A stretch of 21,792 bases of DNA from a virus (taxonomy: Duplodnaviria > Heunggongvirae > Uroviricota > Caudoviricetes). Position numbers and translations under genes: made by a program. This document shows, piece after piece, positions 9,464 to 21,792 of the stretch. The stretch is from the IMG/VR virus record IMGVR_UViG_2718217715_000004; one strand, 5' to 3'. Position 1 is the first letter of the stretch. Each line of letters starts with the position of its first letter. The notes beneath the pieces are model-generated. The model was not told the DNA's origin. It ran no database searches and saw only the letters and a program-made list of their open reading frames with translations.

Positions 9464-9990
9464 ATTGTGGGGCGACTGGCCACTCAACATCCGCTGCTAC
9501 TGTTGTATCAACACGATTCAACAATACCCGATATGTCTTCCATGCAGCCAGTAACGATGCCTCTTCCTCCGTCGCAATATCCAAATCTACGGCATCCTGA
9601 AGTGGCGCAATATGCTCACTGGCTACCTGCATCAGGCTGTTTTTTGTTTCTTCTGCCTCCCGTACCCGAAACAGTTTTTCTGCTTCTGCATCTTTCGCCC
9701 AGGATGTGCCGTTCCACTTCTGACACTCTCCATCCGGCGACAACCAGGTAACATTTTCCGGTAACGGACCGAGTTCAGAAATAAATAACGCGTCGCCGGA
9801 AGCCACGTCATAAACCGTTTTACCCCGATGATCTTCAACGAGATGCCACGATGCCTCATTACTGTTGAAAACAGCCACGAAGCCAGCCGGAATATCTGGC
9901 GGTGCAATATCGGTACTGTTTGCTGGCAGACCTGTATGAGGCGGAATGTATGCGTCACCTTCACCAATAAATTCATTAGTTCCGGCCAGC
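9462..9990 (-). pseudogene. tfa: Tail fibre assembly protein (lambdoid Tfa/TfaQ-like), 5' end removed by the IS insertion
   Basis: Minus-strand frame is open from the IS boundary: ...[61 protein letters not shown]...[12 protein letters not shown]...EWPVAPQ, matching remembered Tfa proteins; about 17 N-terminal codons are missing (ORF track shows only 9462-9878). Confidence 0.8.
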
Positions 9991-10044: not shown

Positions 10045-10371
10045 ATGACTAAAAATACTCGTTTTTCCCCCGAAGTCCGTCAGCGGGCGATTCGTATGGT
10101 TCTGGAAAGTCAGGATGAATATGACTCACAGTGGGCGGCAATTTGTTCCATTGCCCCAAAGATTGGCTGTACGCCGGAGACTCTGCGTGTCTGGGTTCGC
10201 CAGCATGAGCGGGATACCGGGGGCGGTGATGGTGGGCTCACCAGCGCTGAACGTCAGCGTCTGAAAGAGCTGGAACGTGAAAATCGTGAACTGCGCCGCA
10301 GTAACGATATCCTTCGCCAGGCTTCCGCTTATTTTGCGAAGGCGGAGTTCGACCGCCTCTGGAAAAAATGA
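10045..10371 (+). CDS. IS3-family transposase OrfA
   Basis: 108 aa [27 protein letters not shown]...; 3 substitutions relative to copy A. Confidence 0.9.
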
Positions 10372-11258
10372 TGCCACTGCTGGATAAGCTGCGTGAGCAG
10401 TACGGGGTCGGACCGGTATGCAGCGAACTGCATATTGCCCCGTCAACGTATTACCATTGTCAGCAACAGCGACATCATCCGGATAAACGCAGTGCCCGTG
10501 CGCAGCACGACGACTGGCTGAAGAGAGAGATACAGCGCGTATACGATGAAAATCATCAGGTGTACGGTGTGCGTAAAGTCTGGCGTCAGTTGTTACGGGA
10601 AGGAATCAGGGTGGCCAGATGTACAGTGGCACGTCTCATGGCGGTTATGGGACTTGCCGGTGTTCTCCGGGGTAAAAAGGTCCGTACGACCATCAGCCGG
10701 AAAGCCGTTGCCGCAGGCGACCGCGTAAACCGTCAGTTCGTGGCAGAACGACCTGACCAGCTGTGGGTGGCTGATTTTACTTACGTCAGCACATGGCAGG
10801 GCTTCGTCTATGTGGCGTTTATCATTGATGTGTTTGCCGGATACATCGTGGGGTGGCGGGTCTCATCGTCTATGGAAACGACATTCGTGCTGGATGCGCT
10901 GGAGCAGGCGTTGTGGGCCCGTCGTCCGTCTGGCACCATCCATCACAGCGATAAAGGCTCTCAGTATGTGTCACTGGCCTATACGGAGCGACTAAAAGAA
11001 GCCGGATTACTGGCATCAACAGGGAGTACAGGCGACTCGTATGACAACGCGATGGCTGAGAGCATCAATGGTCTTTACAAAGCGGAGGTAATACACCGTA
11101 AGAGCTGGAAAAACCGTGCAGAAGTGGAACTGGCCACACTAACGTGGGTGGACTGGTATAACAATCGACGATTGCTGGGAAGGCTGGGCCATACTCCTCC
11201 GGCAGAAGCAGAAAAAGCTTATTATGCTTCCATCGGAAACGATGATCTGGCAGCCTGA
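10368..11258 (+). CDS. IS3-family transposase OrfB (DDE), -1 frame relative to orfA
   Basis: 296 aa; overlaps orfA at the GGAAAAAATGATG window. Confidence 0.9.
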
Positions 11259-16193: not shown

Positions 16194-16372
16194 GGTGTGG
16201 CCTCTTTGCTCGGTGATAGAAATAACTCACCATCCAGAGTTGAGAATCTCGGGGTGGCGAGACGTACAGGGTTCTCAACACCGGAGAGCAAAGAATCCGG
16301 CCCGACCGAAGTCGGCCCCGTACGCCCCGCCATAATTCTGACGCGAAAAAGACGTGGCAATACAGTACGCAC

Positions 16373-16393
16373 AAAAAAACCGCTAGCGCGGTT
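16373..16393 (-). terminator. Rho-independent terminator on the minus strand
   Basis: Read on the minus strand: stem AACCGC / GCGGTT, loop GCTA, followed by T-run (GCGGTTTTTTT). Confidence 0.5.
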
Positions 16394-16464
16394 ATGCGCT
16401 TTGCTCTGTATCGGGTTGAGAATCCCGGCACCCGTTTTATGAGGTGCAGCGGAAATGTAACCTG

Positions 16465-16515: not shown

Positions 16516-16815
16516 TTACTGGTTCAGAAAAAAATCAAAAACGTTATCGATGCGTTGCAGCAGCTCTTGCTGCATTGCTTCCGGCGTTTCCGGTTCGCCA
16601 GGTGCCCCCAGCGTTGCGCAGAAATCAGCGATTTCATGATGGAGCGTGAGGCGAATGGCAGGAGCCGTGGTTCTGGCGTGCTCCAGCTGATCCAGCAGTG
16701 CCAGCACAGCAGACGGCGAGAGCATTGCGCGAAATGCCAGTAATTTTTGAGGCGTTGCCATTCGTTGCAGGGCAAATGCCAGTTCGCGTAGCTTCTGGTG
16801 GTTGATGGTGCTCAT
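16516..16815 (-). CDS. Hypothetical protein (99 aa)
   Basis: Start overlaps the stop of the upstream gene by 4 nt (ATGA), indicating translational coupling. Confidence 0.5.
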   Translation of the reverse strand: MSTINHQKLRELAFALQRMATPQKLLAFRAMLSPSAVLALLDQLEHARTTAPAIRLTLHHEIADFCATLGAPGEPETPEAMQQELLQRIDNVFDFFLNQ

Positions 16816-17078
16816 GCTCTGGCTTCCTTCAGTAGCTGGTTAAACATGTGAGTAAGTGGATTGCTACACCCGAACGGCATCGGGTTTACGTGGTAAGAAG
16901 CCTGGCCTCCTGTTTTGCGAGCGCGACCACCTGTGCTGCGGTTTGTTCTGATGACTAAGCCGCCGCGCCAAAGTCGGCGTAACTCAGCATTAATGGCTGT
17001 GGTTGGGGTATTCAGTGCTGCGGCGATCTCTCCGCCGCTACACCCCGGATGAGTAGCGATGTAGTCCAGAATGGTCAT
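16812..17078 (-). CDS. Small winged-helix-type DNA-binding protein (88 aa)
   Basis: GGEIAAALNTPTTAINAELRRLWRGGLVIRT pattern typical of winged HTH; 4-nt overlaps with both neighbours. Confidence 0.5.
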   Translation of the reverse strand: MTILDYIATHPGCSGGEIAAALNTPTTAINAELRRLWRGGLVIRTNRSTGGRARKTGGQASYHVNPMPFGCSNPLTHMFNQLLKEARA

Positions 17079-17301: not shown

Positions 17302-17718
17302 CTATGCGTTAAATACGGCACGTTGCGCGTCATCAATGAATACAGCTTGAGAGCGTTCTATCAGGCGGAGATTTGTCAGAAGCTCTGACTCTTTTGTGTG
17401 GTAAGGCGTTATCAGGTATTTGCCGTGCAGTTCGGCAATAATGGTGTATTGCAGCATCATTGCTGAACCAAGAATATAAATGCAGCGTCCAATGCTGGAC
17501 GGATTCATGGCTGCAACTGTTGACTGTGTTTTAAGAGTGTCGATTTCTTTGCTCTGTTCCTCAATAACTTTGGCTGCTTCAGGGGTGGCTATTGCGATGG
17601 TCAGTGCGTAAAGCGCTGCCATATGTTGATTATCTTTCTGGGCTGCCCTGGACAGCTTGTCTTGCTCTGCTGACACTATTTTTAATGTATTGATAATATT
17701 TTTTTCTTTTGCGTTCAT
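17302..17718 (-). CDS. Hypothetical protein (138 aa), AT-rich
   Basis: ORF with SD GGAG; no recognisable motifs. Confidence 0.5.
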   Translation of the reverse strand: MNAKEKNIINTLKIVSAEQDKLSRAAQKDNQHMAALYALTIAIATPEAAKVIEEQSKEIDTLKTQSTVAAMNPSSIGRCIYILGSAMMLQYTIIAELHGKYLITPYHTKESELLTNLRLIERSQAVFIDDAQRAVFNA

Positions 17719-17810
17719 TTTATATCTCCGTTATTTACGTGTGCGAATACCTCCGCGAATGCGGATAGTTTTCAGGTTTTCGGGTTTAATCTGGTGTTCT
17801 GTTTAAGCTG

Positions 17811-17924
17811 TTATTTGTCAGTGAAAAAGCGTTCAATCTTTTTTACTGAATGAATAATTCGCATAATCCCAATGGCGCAGGCCACCGAAATAATCAGAAC
17901 AAGCCATGAGATAAATATACTCAT
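17811..17924 (-). CDS. Unlisted small ORF: 37-aa single-pass membrane peptide MSIFISWLVLIISVACAIGIMRIIHSVKKIERFFTDK
   Basis: Translated by hand; ATG overlaps the TGA stop of the upstream 80-aa gene (ATGA); SD GGGGAA 6 nt upstream; hydrophobic helix then basic tail. Below the 60-aa cutoff of the ORF track. Confidence 0.4.
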   Translation of the reverse strand: MSIFISWLVLIISVACAIGIMRIIHSVKKIERFFTDK

Positions 17925-18163
17925 GCGATATTCCCCAGCTTATATGGTTCAATGTGTTCCCCGCATTCTGCGGCACAGATCAGCTCGGAAAGTTCGTTAA
18001 GTGCATCCAGATCATCAGCGTAAAAAGCAACGTCATACAAACTCCGGATTGCCCTGGTCAATGAGTCACGGGCTGCACGTTCAGCATGAGCGCCTGATGC
18101 ACTTAAGCGAAAATAAAATCGTTCAGGTGCTTTGTTAATGAGAGTTTTATATTCTTTGCCCAT
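17921..18163 (-). CDS. Hypothetical protein (80 aa)
   Basis: ORF in the early operon; stop overlaps the start of the 37-aa peptide ORF. Confidence 0.5.
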   Translation of the reverse strand: MGKEYKTLINKAPERFYFRLSASGAHAERAARDSLTRAIRSLYDVAFYADDLDALNELSELICAAECGEHIEPYKLGNIA

Positions 18164-18463: not shown

Positions 18464-18814
18464 TTATAAATCAGCCTGTTTAATAAAACTTTGCCCGCGA
18501 AGCAGACGATCAACCGTGCGAAGTGCTTCGTATAATGTGAAATCCTGCCCGAAGTGATTGTCGCCGCAGTTCAATGCAAAAATGCGGTTCCCGGTAAACG
18601 GATTGCGTGGGCATTTGTGGACCACGATTCCAGCTTTCTCAATCAGCCAGGCATGTTCGCCGATTTGTTTTACAGCGTGGCCATCCGGTGTTGCATGCGT
18701 CTCGTTCAGGTTATAGCGACTGTTACTACGTGATGCACTGGTAGCGACGTGGTGTACATGGCGTTCTACGCCATTACGAAATTTGGAGTATGGATTATTA
18801 GCGTTTTTTTTCAT
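18464..18814 (-). CDS. Hypothetical His/Cys-containing protein (116 aa)
   Basis: ORF; HVHHV...H...CPRNPFTGN...CGDNHF could be a metal-binding motif; unassigned. Confidence 0.5.
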   Translation of the reverse strand: MKKNANNPYSKFRNGVERHVHHVATSASRSNSRYNLNETHATPDGHAVKQIGEHAWLIEKAGIVVHKCPRNPFTGNRIFALNCGDNHFGQDFTLYEALRTVDRLLRGQSFIKQADL

Positions 18815-18835: not shown

Positions 18836-19039
18836 TTAGCTGTTAGCCAAAGCGTCTTTTAACATCGCCACAAGGTTTACTTCAGGCTTTTCCATTTTGG
18901 CGCGTTTGGGGCGGATAATAATTCGACCGTCAGCCAACATCTTTTTGCATGTATTAAGAGGGATACCTGTTATCTCTGCATATTTCTGCAGGGATACATA
19001 GGGGGCATTCACATTGATATTGATGGTTATACCTGACAT
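18836..19039 (-). CDS. Cox/Apl-like small HTH protein (putative excisionase / early-promoter regulator)
   Basis: 67 aa; NAPYVSLQKYAEITGIPLNTCKKMLADGRIIIR resembles the P2 Cox region AIPYQEFAKLIGKSTGAVRRMIDKGKLPVI as remembered. Confidence 0.5.
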   Translation of the reverse strand: MSGITININVNAPYVSLQKYAEITGIPLNTCKKMLADGRIIIRPKRAKMEKPEVNLVAMLKDALANS

Positions 19040-19055: not shown

Positions 19056-19262
19056 TCAGGAAGATTTGTTTTGTTCTTTCTGGGTTAGCTCTAGGCCGCG
19101 AAGGGAGATCATGCGCGCCATGTTAGAGGATGAGCGTTGTTCTTTAGCTGCCATTTCATCAATGACGGCTCGCTCCTCGAGGGACAGCCGAAGTGCCAGT
19201 CTTGGACCTGTGGCGGTGTTACGCGGAATGCGTGATCTGGTATCGTGAAGAACTTGTTTCAT
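19056..19262 (-). CDS. Ribbon-helix-helix (CopG/Arc-like) DNA-binding protein
   Basis: 68 aa; RLALRLSLEERAVIDEMAAKEQRSSSNMARMISLRG fits the RHH beta-strand/helix-turn-helix pattern; weak SD, so start or reality is uncertain. Confidence 0.4.
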   Translation of the reverse strand: MKQVLHDTRSRIPRNTATGPRLALRLSLEERAVIDEMAAKEQRSSSNMARMISLRGLELTQKEQNKSS

Positions 19263-19304
19263 AGTGGTATATTGTGATCATCTAATAGCTCGTGAAATCA
19301 TTTT

Positions 19305-19322
19305 GGTATCAAAAAAGATACC
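19305..19322. promoter_or_regulatory. Candidate operator: perfect inverted repeat GGTATC-N6-GATACC in the divergent-promoter region
   Basis: Read directly; an extra GGTAT half-site at 19266-19270; lies between the RHH/Cox early genes and the XRE repressor gene. Confidence 0.3.
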
Positions 19323-19337
19323 TGTCAAGGTTTTTGT

Positions 19338-19742
19338 ATGAAAAATGATATTGGTCGGCGGTTGCGTGAGGAAAGGGAAAGATTGGGACTTAGTCAAGTT
19401 GCCATGAGCGACATTGGTGGAGTCAAAAAGCTAACTCAGCTTAGATATGAGAAAGGAGATAGCTTTCCTGATGCTGCGTATTTGGCAGCGCTGTCTCGTT
19501 TTGGCCTTGATGTTCAGTATGTTGTGTTGGGAATTCACTCACCTGAAACTTATAACGATGATGAGCAGGAATTGATTACTCGCTTTCGAGCAGCTTCGTT
19601 AGATGTGAAAAACGCGGTGATTGGGGCTTTAAAAGGTGCGATCAGTGAAAAGGAAACTCAGCCATCAGGACGTGAGTTAAATATTTCTGGTGGTAATAAC
19701 CGTATCGCTGGTCGTGACTATAACGAAACTAAGGGTAGGTGA
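19338..19742 (+). CDS. XRE-family HTH protein, probable immunity repressor (P2 C / 186 CI analogue)
   Basis: 134 aa; RLREERERLGLSQVAMSDIGGVKKLTQLRYEKGDSFPDAAYLAAL is a classic Cro/C1-type HTH; divergent from the early operon and on the same strand as int. Confidence 0.7.
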   Translation: MKNDIGRRLREERERLGLSQVAMSDIGGVKKLTQLRYEKGDSFPDAAYLAALSRFGLDVQYVVLGIHSPETYNDDEQELITRFRAASLDVKNAVIGALKGAISEKETQPSGRELNISGGNNRIAGRDYNETKGR

Positions 19743-20790: not shown

Positions 20791-21792
20791 ATGTCGGTTC
20801 GTAAGATTCCATCAGGTAAATGGCTTTGTGAATGTTATCCCTACGGGGCATCGGGAAAACGCATTCGTAAACAGTTTGCGACAAAAAGTGAGGCGCTCTC
20901 TTATGAGCGCCGTTTAATGAATAGTAGAGTTGGAGACGAGTTTCAAGATGGTTCTGGTCCTCGTCTTTCTGAGTTGATTGCTCGTTGGTTTGAGATGTAC
21001 GGTAAAACCTTGTCCTCTGGTGCAGAGCGCAAAGTCAAACTTGAGGCGATTTGTTCCAGGCTGGGAGATCCATTTGCTTCTCAGTTTGACAAAAATATGT
21101 TTGCTACTTATCGGGAAAGAAGGCTATCAGGAGAATGGAATCCCAAGGGGAAGAAAAAACTTAGTGAAGCAACCGTTAATCGCGAGCAGTCATATCTACA
21201 TGCTGTTTTTGCCGAACTGAAGCGCCTTGGGGAGTGGTCTGGTGAAAACCCCCTGACTGGTATTCGCAAGTTTCGTGAGGAAGAAAAGGAACTGGCGTTT
21301 CTGTATGTAGATGAGATTGAACGCCTTCTGATTGCGTGTGATGAGTCACGGAATAAAGATTTGGGGGTTGTTGTCCGTATTGGGCTTGCGACTGGTGCTC
21401 GGTGGAGTGAAGCAGAAGGATTAAAGCAATCTCAAGTACTGCCCGGTCGAATCACATTTGTTAAAACTAAAGGAAAGAAGAACCGCACTGTACCGATTTC
21501 ACCTCAATTGCAAGCTATGCTTCCTAAAAAACGAGGAGCGCTATTTTCACCATGTTATGAGGCTTTTGACGCTGCAATTAAGAGAGCGAAGATCGAGCTT
21601 CCTGATGGGCAATTAACTCATGTGCTACGTCACACGTTTGCCAGTCATTTTATGATGCGGGGTGGAAATATTCTTGTGTTGCAAAAAATACTGGGGCATA
21701 GCGATATAAAAATGACTATGCGTTATGCGCATTTTGCTCCAGGTCATTTAGAGGCTGCTGTTGAATTGAACCCTTTTGACAATAGAGGGTAA
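20791..21792 (+). CDS. int: P2-type tyrosine integrase
   Basis: 333 aa; GKRIRKQF, LSEL, TGARWSEAEGL, TFVKTKGKKNRTVPIS, LTHVLRHTFASHFMMRGGNILVLQKILGHSDIKMTMRYAHFAP match P2 Int blocks as remembered; stop at the last base of the window. Confidence 0.9.
   Translation: MSVRKIPSGKWLCECYPYGASGKRIRKQFATKSEALSYERRLMNSRVGDEFQDGSGPRLSELIARWFEMYGKTLSSGAERKVKLEAICSRLGDPFASQFDKNMFATYRERRLSGEWNPKGKKKLSEATVNREQSYLHAVFAELKRLGEWSGENPLTGIRKFREEEKELAFLYVDEIERLLIACDESRNKDLGVVVRIGLATGARWSEAEGLKQSQVLPGRITFVKTKGKKNRTVPISPQLQAMLPKKRGALFSPCYEAFDAAIKRAKIELPDGQLTHVLRHTFASHFMMRGGNILVLQKILGHSDIKMTMRYAHFAPGHLEAAVELNPFDNRG

Follow-up and report, generated by a model that had tools for sequence, protein, structure and literature searches.

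Small membrane proteins of phages are numerous and almost entirely uncharacterised. The IMG/VR virus record IMGVR_UViG_2718217715_000004 (Caudoviricetes; 21,792 nucleotides, referred to over its whole length as the window) offers a tractable example in the form of a 37-codon open reading frame (ORF) on the minus strand that overlaps the end of a DUF4754 gene. Is this ORF a gene, and if so, what might its product do? A first-pass annotation, made by a model from the letters of the sequence, had described it as an unlisted and translationally coupled single-pass membrane peptide that resembles either toxins of the Hok/TisB class or small phage membrane regulators. We report that the ORF is conserved together with its upstream neighbour, and its substitution pattern indicates a genuine protein-coding gene under purifying selection. 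As to function, we lean towards a micro-protein of the early lytic operon that would contact a membrane partner.

Conservation and selection on the reading frame

The coordinates and translation of the ORF proved to be exactly those given in the first-pass annotation. The gene, its upstream partner and the elements at their junction are as follows.

17811..17924, minus strand: peptide gene, ATG start, 37 codons followed by TAA, encoding MSIFISWLVLIISVACAIGIMRIIHSVKKIERFFTDK
17921..18163, minus strand: DUF4754 (PF15946) gene, 80 amino acids (aa), upstream partner, Pfam E 4.5e-53
17921..17924, minus strand: ATGA start/stop overlap of the peptide and DUF4754 genes, kept in every related locus, including those with DUF4754 alleles of 31-39% identity
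17931..17936, minus strand: GGGGAA Shine-Dalgarno (SD)-like motif, 6 nucleotides (nt) before the ATG and inside the 3' end of the DUF4754 gene

Since 47 ORFs of 30 aa or more overlap the surrounding 3 kb, the length of the peptide ORF is unremarkable by itself, and the case for a gene therefore rests on conservation. Conservation of the frame in related prophages had been proposed as a check together with the original description, and we gathered 83 loci for this purpose from IMG/VR and genomes, anchored on DUF4754. At all 83 loci DUF4754 had 80 codons, the next ORF began at the ATGA, and its frame was open; 32 peptide variants were represented. The ratio of nonsynonymous to synonymous differences per site (pN/pS) was 0.21 in the annotated frame but 1.14 and 1.12 in the remaining frames of the same strand (36 distinct DNA sequences), and these two frames contained stops in 36/36 and 35/36 sequences. 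The three antisense frames had stops in 35-41 of 41 distinct sequences, and an overlapping plus-strand ORF of 42 aa was intact in just 18 of 28. Variable sites in the peptide gene numbered 8, 5 and 16 at the first, second and third codon positions, respectively. Between pairs of deep alleles, pS was 0.51-0.77 compared to a pN of 0.10-0.27 (Fisher P-values from 0.004 to 2e-5), with synonymous sites near saturation. For DUF4754 the pN/pS was 0.05. The check set by the first-pass annotation, under which a frame that is not conserved would count against the gene, was thus clearly passed.

The family is narrow: HMMER, run exhaustively against 1.8 billion cluster representatives, returned only nine matches for the peptide; the best 80 matches of a profile-based locus search were the same close relatives. 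No significant match to the peptide was obtained in Pfam, PHROG, NCBIfam, PADLOC or PDB sequences, and Rfam placed no family at or near the ORF, either at the gathering threshold or at E<=10. Two marginal peptide matches, PHROG 5620 (E 0.36) and Pfam PET117 (E 0.19), were set aside as noise from hydrophobic composition.

The description of the ORF as unlisted holds for the ORF track of the first-pass annotation but not for public records, in which it is already annotated and thus not new. PGAP lists it as WP_000021655.1 (a 37-aa hypothetical protein of E. coli O157:H7), UniRef names the peptide 'Prophage membrane protein' (A0A0C2F1Q7), and the copy in phage P88 is gp07, 'membrane protein' (YP_009113050.1), which has the same length and is 94.6% identical. 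The exact peptide sequence of the window occurs on at least 1000 contigs. Public genomes are nevertheless inconsistent in how they annotate so short an ORF: an intact 41-aa allele was left uncalled in 3 of 8 otherwise near-identical assemblies (L180, L184 and L185; positions 1740-1865). That gene callers drop an intact ORF in some assemblies is a reminder for genome annotation.

Start signals and divergent alleles

The sequence bears out the ATGA overlap that had been noted at the start of the ORF: the ATG (17924..17922) shares bases with the TGA (17923..17921) of the 80-aa DUF4754 gene. From this arrangement, translational coupling between the end of DUF4754 and the start of the peptide is probable. 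The GGGGAA motif, likewise part of the original description, is present, but its predicted pairing with the 3' end of 16S rRNA is modest (-5.5 kcal/mol), a value that random 22-nt windows of the same 1.5 kb match in 10-21% of cases.

Four deeper peptide alleles, with about 50-65% identity, keep the frame, the ATG and the ATGA overlap. Two of these, P0004 and P0005, are 41-aa alleles of 57-64% identity that were among the nine HMMER matches; the other two were found later.

Divergent alleles (P0004, P0005 and the two found later): MSVFLSWVILIISVLMAIGIMRIIEALKNIESLFTGEERRK; MNILISWLILILAIICAVGTMRIINGIKTIESLFTGDKRHK; MSVFMSWLILILAIICAVGIMRVINSINTIESLFTGDKRRK; MNIFISWLILIISVLCAIGIVRIIDSVKDIESLFTGEKRRK

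All lie directly 3' of a DUF4754-type gene of 80 codons, which they overlap by the same 4 nt, and all are found in P2-like prophages that have different repressor/Cox modules and different downstream cargo; some of their DUF4754 partners are just 31-39% identical to that of the window. In three of the divergent alleles the SD sequence (GAGGTG, AGGAGG and GAGGAG) is strong, at -10.0 to -10.3 kcal/mol, where only 1% of background windows reach -8 kcal/mol, and these strong sequences are kept although the DUF4754 C-terminal residues that overlap them differ. The allele at locus L085 has a weak SD (-4.2 kcal/mol). Copies of the peptide gene on plasmids likewise adjoin DUF4754.

Two homopolymeric runs near the end of the gene are sites of rare natural frameshifts.

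17824..17828, minus strand: T5 run, rare natural -1 frameshift in 7 of 83 loci, giving a 45-aa product that ends in ...ERFSLVNNDTNKTSN
17839..17844, minus strand: A6 run, rare natural -1 frameshift that replaces the tail, giving a 45-aa product, ...SVKRLNAFSLANN... (P0002 and P0003)

A further singleton of 59 aa (P0007) derives from an intact 41-aa allele by deletion of 1 nt. The frameshifted forms amount to about 16 contigs plus singletons, whereas the window allele and P0004, the commonest 41-aa allele, each occur on 1000 contigs or more, and this rarity indicates that the normal tail is the selected state, even though its last few residues vary freely (TDK, TGE, TEE or SDE).

Two records among the relatives deserve separate mention. 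In phage 503458 (L091, NC_049341.1, positions 125-470) the DUF4754 and peptide genes are both broken by several frameshifts; as DUF4754 is also frameshifted, this is either a decayed element or an indel-rich record, and it is uninformative on the peptide. Contig NZ_JBQPOM010000071.1 (L002), assigned to Vagococcus sp. WN89Y, has the peptide gene after a DUF4754 gene that shares 96% identity with that of E. coli; it is most likely an enterobacterial contamination or a mislabelled assembly.

Predicted product

Hydropathy, charge counts and an AlphaFold2 model all agree with the hydrophobic helix and basic C-terminal tail that had been read from the translation. Two segments can be distinguished.

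17862..17918, minus strand: predicted transmembrane helix, codons 3-21 (IFISWLVLIISVACAIGIM), from Kyte-Doolittle hydropathy, the Hessa apparent insertion free energy (dGapp) and AlphaFold2
17814..17861, minus strand: basic amphipathic tail, predicted cytoplasmic, codons 22-37 (RIIHSVKKIERFFTDK), from charge and hydrophobic moment

Residues 3-21 form the best 19-residue window, with a mean Kyte-Doolittle value of 2.68 and a summed Hessa dGapp of -2.9 kcal/mol, and the only cysteine of the peptide lies within them. The tail has 5 K/R against 2 D/E, and the hydrophobic moment of residues 22-34 (0.78) is attained by 2% of shuffles. With an alignment of 13 sequences, AlphaFold2 modelled residues 2-35 as one helix (predicted local distance difference test score, pLDDT, 88). 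Under the positive-inside rule, the positively charged tail, together with the presence of just two residues before the hydrophobic stretch, predicts an N-out/C-in topology.

Seven residues are invariant over 70 distinct in-frame alleles (S6, W7, I11, I23, I24, K28 and F34), and L10, A17, G19, I20, M21, R22, I30 and E31 are near-invariant, I30 and E31 varying in 1 of the 70. Variation is concentrated at positions 5, 8, 9, 15, 16, 25-27, 29, 32 and 33, and is lower at 12; positions 5, 8, 9, 15 and 16 (12 less so) make up a variable stripe. The variability recurs with each turn of the helix: over residues 3-34, the periodicity of the entropy peaks at 105 degrees (permutation P-value 0.003), in a set of related alleles with about four deep lineages. 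We read this as a helix whose outer-leaflet half would have one variable, lipid-facing stripe and one constrained stripe, and whose cytoplasmic-leaflet half, with the juxtamembrane MRII, appears constrained all round. Such a pattern of constraint would be expected of a helix that packs against another protein.

The DUF4754 partner and the early operon

DUF4754 was found directly upstream of the peptide gene in every genome sampled. AlphaFold2 models it as a three-helix bundle (pLDDT 70) for which no fold match at E<=0.001 was found in PDB or BFVD, and such a generic bundle without a fold match provides no functional lead. In the window, DUF4754 has a proline at position 13 (18125-18127), within predicted helix 1, in place of the leucine shared by the 16 other aligned homologues; this may be a damaging change in the defective O157:H7 prophage.

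The two genes belong to an early block with the conserved order DUF4761, a variable small ORF, DUF4754 and the peptide gene. The surrounding features are as follows.

19338..19742, plus strand: divergent repressor gene with helix-turn-helix (HTH) domains, facing the candidate early promoter
19300..19328, minus strand: candidate early promoter TTGACA-17-CAAAAT, a consensus match only, at 10 of 12 positions
18836..19039, minus strand: Cox-like excisionase/repressor gene, positioned at the start of the early lytic operon or close to it (PHROG 575, E 1.2e-27)
18464..18814, minus strand: DUF4761 gene (Pfam E 2.1e-64)
17302..17718, minus strand: gene for a 138-aa protein with a match to PHROG 9338, directly downstream of the peptide gene, where variable cargo starts

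The numbers of promoters and terminators that our scans returned in this region equal the chance expectation, and no promoter of its own above chance level was found for the peptide gene. Between the candidate promoter and the Cox-like gene lies a 68-aa ORF (19056-19262, minus strand), in place of which PGAP annotates a 45-aa ORF at 19111-19248 on the plus strand; neither has a Pfam match. Downstream of the peptide, the genes differ in P88 and other prophages. The 92-nt spacer that follows the peptide ORF is highly variable (59 of 92 sites; 80-92 nt across loci) and contains no terminator or structured RNA (fold z-score -0.88). On the plus strand, a promoter-like CTGACA-16-GATAAT at 17670-17699 and a terminator-like hairpin, TCCGCGAATGCGGA, with a T-rich tail at 17752-17765 could yield an RNA of about 60-70 nt antisense to the ribosome-binding site of the 138-aa gene, although the counts of such sites are those expected by chance.

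Further downstream, Rfam identified a C4 antisense RNA (16250-16337, minus strand, 78.5 bits) and the Hfq-binding RNA isrK (16373-16447, minus strand, 63 bits). Both lie directly upstream of the gene for a 76-aa protein of the 'Derepression' family (PF25738; 15963-16193, minus strand), and the set looks like a P1/P7 c4-ant-like antirepressor module within a P2-like early operon.

The host prophage and its setting

The window is a defective P88-like prophage (Xuanwuvirus, Peduoviridae; P2-like) located between leuZ and yecA. Many E. coli O157:H7 chromosomes match the 1.5 kb around the peptide ORF at 100% identity, and this region was found in 1370 of 5426 complete E. coli genomes, 432 of which have at least 80% of the query. 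In strain TR01 the order is yecA, integrase, two small genes and the HTH repressor, followed by the divergent early operon, which encodes a Cox-like DNA-binding protein, DUF4761, a hypothetical protein, DUF4754, WP_000021655.1, hypothetical proteins, a MarR-like protein, a 'derepression protein' and a replication endonuclease. Phage P88 has an identical gene order around gp07, in the same position of the early operon.

The left end of the window (1-1002) holds a 182-aa ORF, presumably pgsA from its position in K-12, together with tRNA-Gly(GCC), tRNA-Cys(GCA) and tRNA-Leu(TAA). The right end (20791-21792) holds the phage integrase gene, beyond which yecA is found in O157:H7. The prophage thus delimited, of about 20.8 kb, is probably the one named CP-933T. 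Frameshift pseudoknots of the ALIL type at 2591-2707 (minus strand) and 10326-10442 (plus strand) mark two insertion sequences (ISs) of the IS3 family, with the ORF pairs 2662-2988/1775-2662 (minus strand) and 10045-10371/10368-11258 (plus strand), and an IS009 RNA lies at 9499-9697 (minus strand) within the tail-gene region. With two IS insertions and no head genes, the prophage is defective. The O157:H7 copy of the peptide gene, which resides in this defective and repressed prophage, is probably a passenger.

Possible function of the peptide and alternative explanations

The reading that we favour, by a modest degree of confidence, is that of an early-lytic, translationally coupled, N-out/C-in micro-protein that would bind a membrane partner through helix-helix contact and serve in accessory modulation of the host. 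The gene is the O157:H7 copy of P88 gp07 and an internal cistron of a repressor-controlled early lytic operon, in which the Cox-like gene is followed by DUF4761, a 92-aa ORF, DUF4754, the peptide gene, variable cargo and the replication gene A. Its translation would be coupled to the end of DUF4754 through the ATGA and the SD-like motif, and the 37 residues are predicted to enter the inner membrane as a single uninterrupted helix, with residues 1-2 in the periplasm, residues 3-21 spanning the membrane and the tail (22-37) in the cytoplasm. There it may bind laterally, helix to helix, to a host inner-membrane protein, to DUF4754 or to itself. It would thus be an accessory host-modulating factor in lytic growth, in the manner of AcrZ, MgtS and SidA, and not a free-standing, pore-forming type I toxin.

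Several points weigh against this reading. The sample behind the helical periodicity consists of about four deep lineages plus many close variants, and these are not independent. A literature search returned nothing on either the peptide gene or DUF4754. Two loci, L084 and L085, share the same peptide DNA, yet their DUF4754 partners are 39% and 81% identical to that of the window, and another A-like DUF4754 (P0035) is paired with a fourth peptide allele; the occurrence of the same peptide allele with different DUF4754 partners implies recombination at the gene boundary and argues against allele-specific co-adaptation. The natural frameshifts that replace the tail indicate that the tail may be partly dispensable, or that these copies are decaying. 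The prophage being defective, the copy of the peptide gene in the window may never be expressed. Finally, a purely hydrophobic single helix can be toxic when overproduced.

A bolder version, which we regard as doubtful, is that DUF4754 and the 37-41-aa peptide together constitute an unrecognised two-part host-takeover module of P2-like phages. The conserved face of the peptide would then dock on a host inner-membrane machine (divisome, membrane protease or transporter) and alter its activity early in lytic growth. If true, this would be a phage counterpart of small bacterial membrane regulators, with a new target.

Alternatively, the peptide might serve as a membrane anchor for DUF4754. Coupled translation would give a fixed ratio of the two products, the basic cytoplasmic tail would tether the acidic three-helix DUF4754 to the inner membrane, and the pair would be the functional unit. 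In every locus and plasmid examined the two genes are indeed neighbours that share 4 nt, at DUF4754 identities down to 31%, and, from a reading of its sequence, DUF4754 has a net charge of about -3 and a C-terminal half that is acidic, against a net positive charge for the peptide tail. However, the pairing of identical peptide alleles with dissimilar DUF4754 partners described above leaves no allele-specific co-variation, and no genuine DUF4754-peptide fusion proteins exist among the records: the 103-128-aa 'DUF4754' entries that we considered as natural fusions were all out-of-frame read-throughs or miscalls of the N-terminus or start. ATGA overlaps also join other cistrons of the same operon (17075-17078 and 16812-16815), and because they are common there, the overlap alone does not imply a complex. 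We consider this explanation unlikely.

A toxin is, in our view, distinctly unlikely. In this explanation the peptide would oligomerise in the inner membrane and dissipate the proton-motive force in the manner of Hok and TisB, for the purpose of host shut-off or the timing of lysis, and the prophage repressor would silence it in place of an antisense RNA. The product is short and very hydrophobic, a helix that ends in a basic tail; the small residues S13, A17 and G19 could aid self-association; and a repressed lytic operon would be its only source of expression, a setting in which toxicity would be tolerable. Yet no type I toxin family was found in Pfam at E<=10, nor any antisense RNA family, own promoter or leader, and the transmembrane segment is devoid of charged or strongly polar residues like those that line the TisB pore. 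Moreover, the peptide would be made early, before the replication genes, when killing of the host would harm the phage, and the lysis functions of P2-like phages are located in the late operon. A holin or antiholin was rejected as a candidate as well, the gene being in the early operon between the Cox-like and replication genes with no lysis gene adjacent.

It seems very improbable that the peptide is functionless and that the ORF acts only in cis, its translation keeping ribosomes on the early mRNA against Rho-dependent polarity or setting the level of downstream expression. The position would suit such a role: the gene is internal to the operon, overlaps its upstream neighbour by 4 nt and is followed by a variable spacer of 80-92 nt, and a note in the phage 186 record describes an upstream ORF that apparently has to be translated to its end for the A gene to be translated. 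A role in cis would not constrain the sequence in the way observed, so the amino-acid-level purifying selection (pN far below pS between deep alleles), the conserved hydrophobic helical character with its invariant residues and helical periodicity, and the constant length of 37 or 41 aa in thousands of contigs all count against it. That the ORF is a product of chance or an annotation artefact is scarcely credible: short ORFs are abundant in the window, gene callers skip this one in 3 of 8 assemblies and no family model exists for it, but the ORF is intact in the three assemblies without a call, and the conservation and selection tests effectively refute the idea.

Taken together, the peptide represents a real but ordinary family of small phage membrane proteins, already annotated and confined to prophages of the P88-like and other P2-like types in E. 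coli and its close relatives, and we see nothing in its sequence that would point to a surprising mechanism. The peptide is conserved, always paired with one DUF protein and widespread, being very common in genomes of E. coli and related Enterobacteriaceae. Its target, if found, could explain what both DUF4754 and the peptide do and could uncover a new site of host-envelope manipulation by phages. Since P88 can be cultured and is genetically accessible, the peptide is a reasonable target for experiments.

Comparison with known systems

The first-pass annotation had left open two kinds of relatives, and these fared differently. Like Hok and TisB, some of which occur in prophages, the peptide is a short hydrophobic peptide predicted to reside in the inner membrane. 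Membership of that class was not borne out, however. Hok_Gef (PF01848) gave no match, at E<=1 for the window peptide and at E<=10 for 13 family members, and TisB (PF13939), Ldr, Ibs and Fst gave no Pfam match even at E<=10. No antisense RNA family of the Sok or IstR type was found nearby in Rfam. The peptide gene is an internal cistron of a polycistronic, repressor-controlled operon, without an antisense RNA, a leader ORF or a LexA-controlled promoter of its own, and, having neither an antisense RNA nor a locus of its own, it does not belong with Hok and TisB. Hok itself has about 50 aa and a periplasmic, Cys-containing C-terminal domain, whereas the peptide has 37 aa and a tail that is predicted to be cytoplasmic.

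In position, the peptide gene is reminiscent of fil and dhr of phage 186. According to the record annotation, these are small overlapping ORFs that lie just after the lysis-lysogeny switch genes and ahead of the replication gene; both are non-essential and target the host, Fil as an inhibitor of cell division. The analogy with the peptide is positional only, as Fil has 75 aa and, unlike the peptide, no N-terminal transmembrane helix. We considered homology with Fil on the basis of a 10-residue similarity (IMRIIHSVKK versus IIRIVHFVIK, P-value ~0.04 against shuffles) and rejected it as a chance match, given that the divergent alleles scored at background.

The second kind of relative, a small membrane regulator, is the one that we favour, as a matter of interpretation. 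Small single-pass membrane regulators such as AcrZ, MgtS and Caulobacter SidA make up a functional class and not a homologous family. The peptide resembles them in having fewer than 50 aa, one predicted transmembrane helix and no enzymatic or other domain. Its apparent conservation on one helical face and in the cytoplasmic-leaflet half, in a set of related alleles, may fit lateral binding to a larger membrane protein. It differs from them in showing no sequence similarity, in being encoded by a phage and in its probable coupling to a soluble partner. The system to which it corresponds directly is gp07 of phage P88. This is the same gene, located after DUF4754 in the same early operon and overlapping it by 4 nt, and it matches the copy in the window in every material respect.

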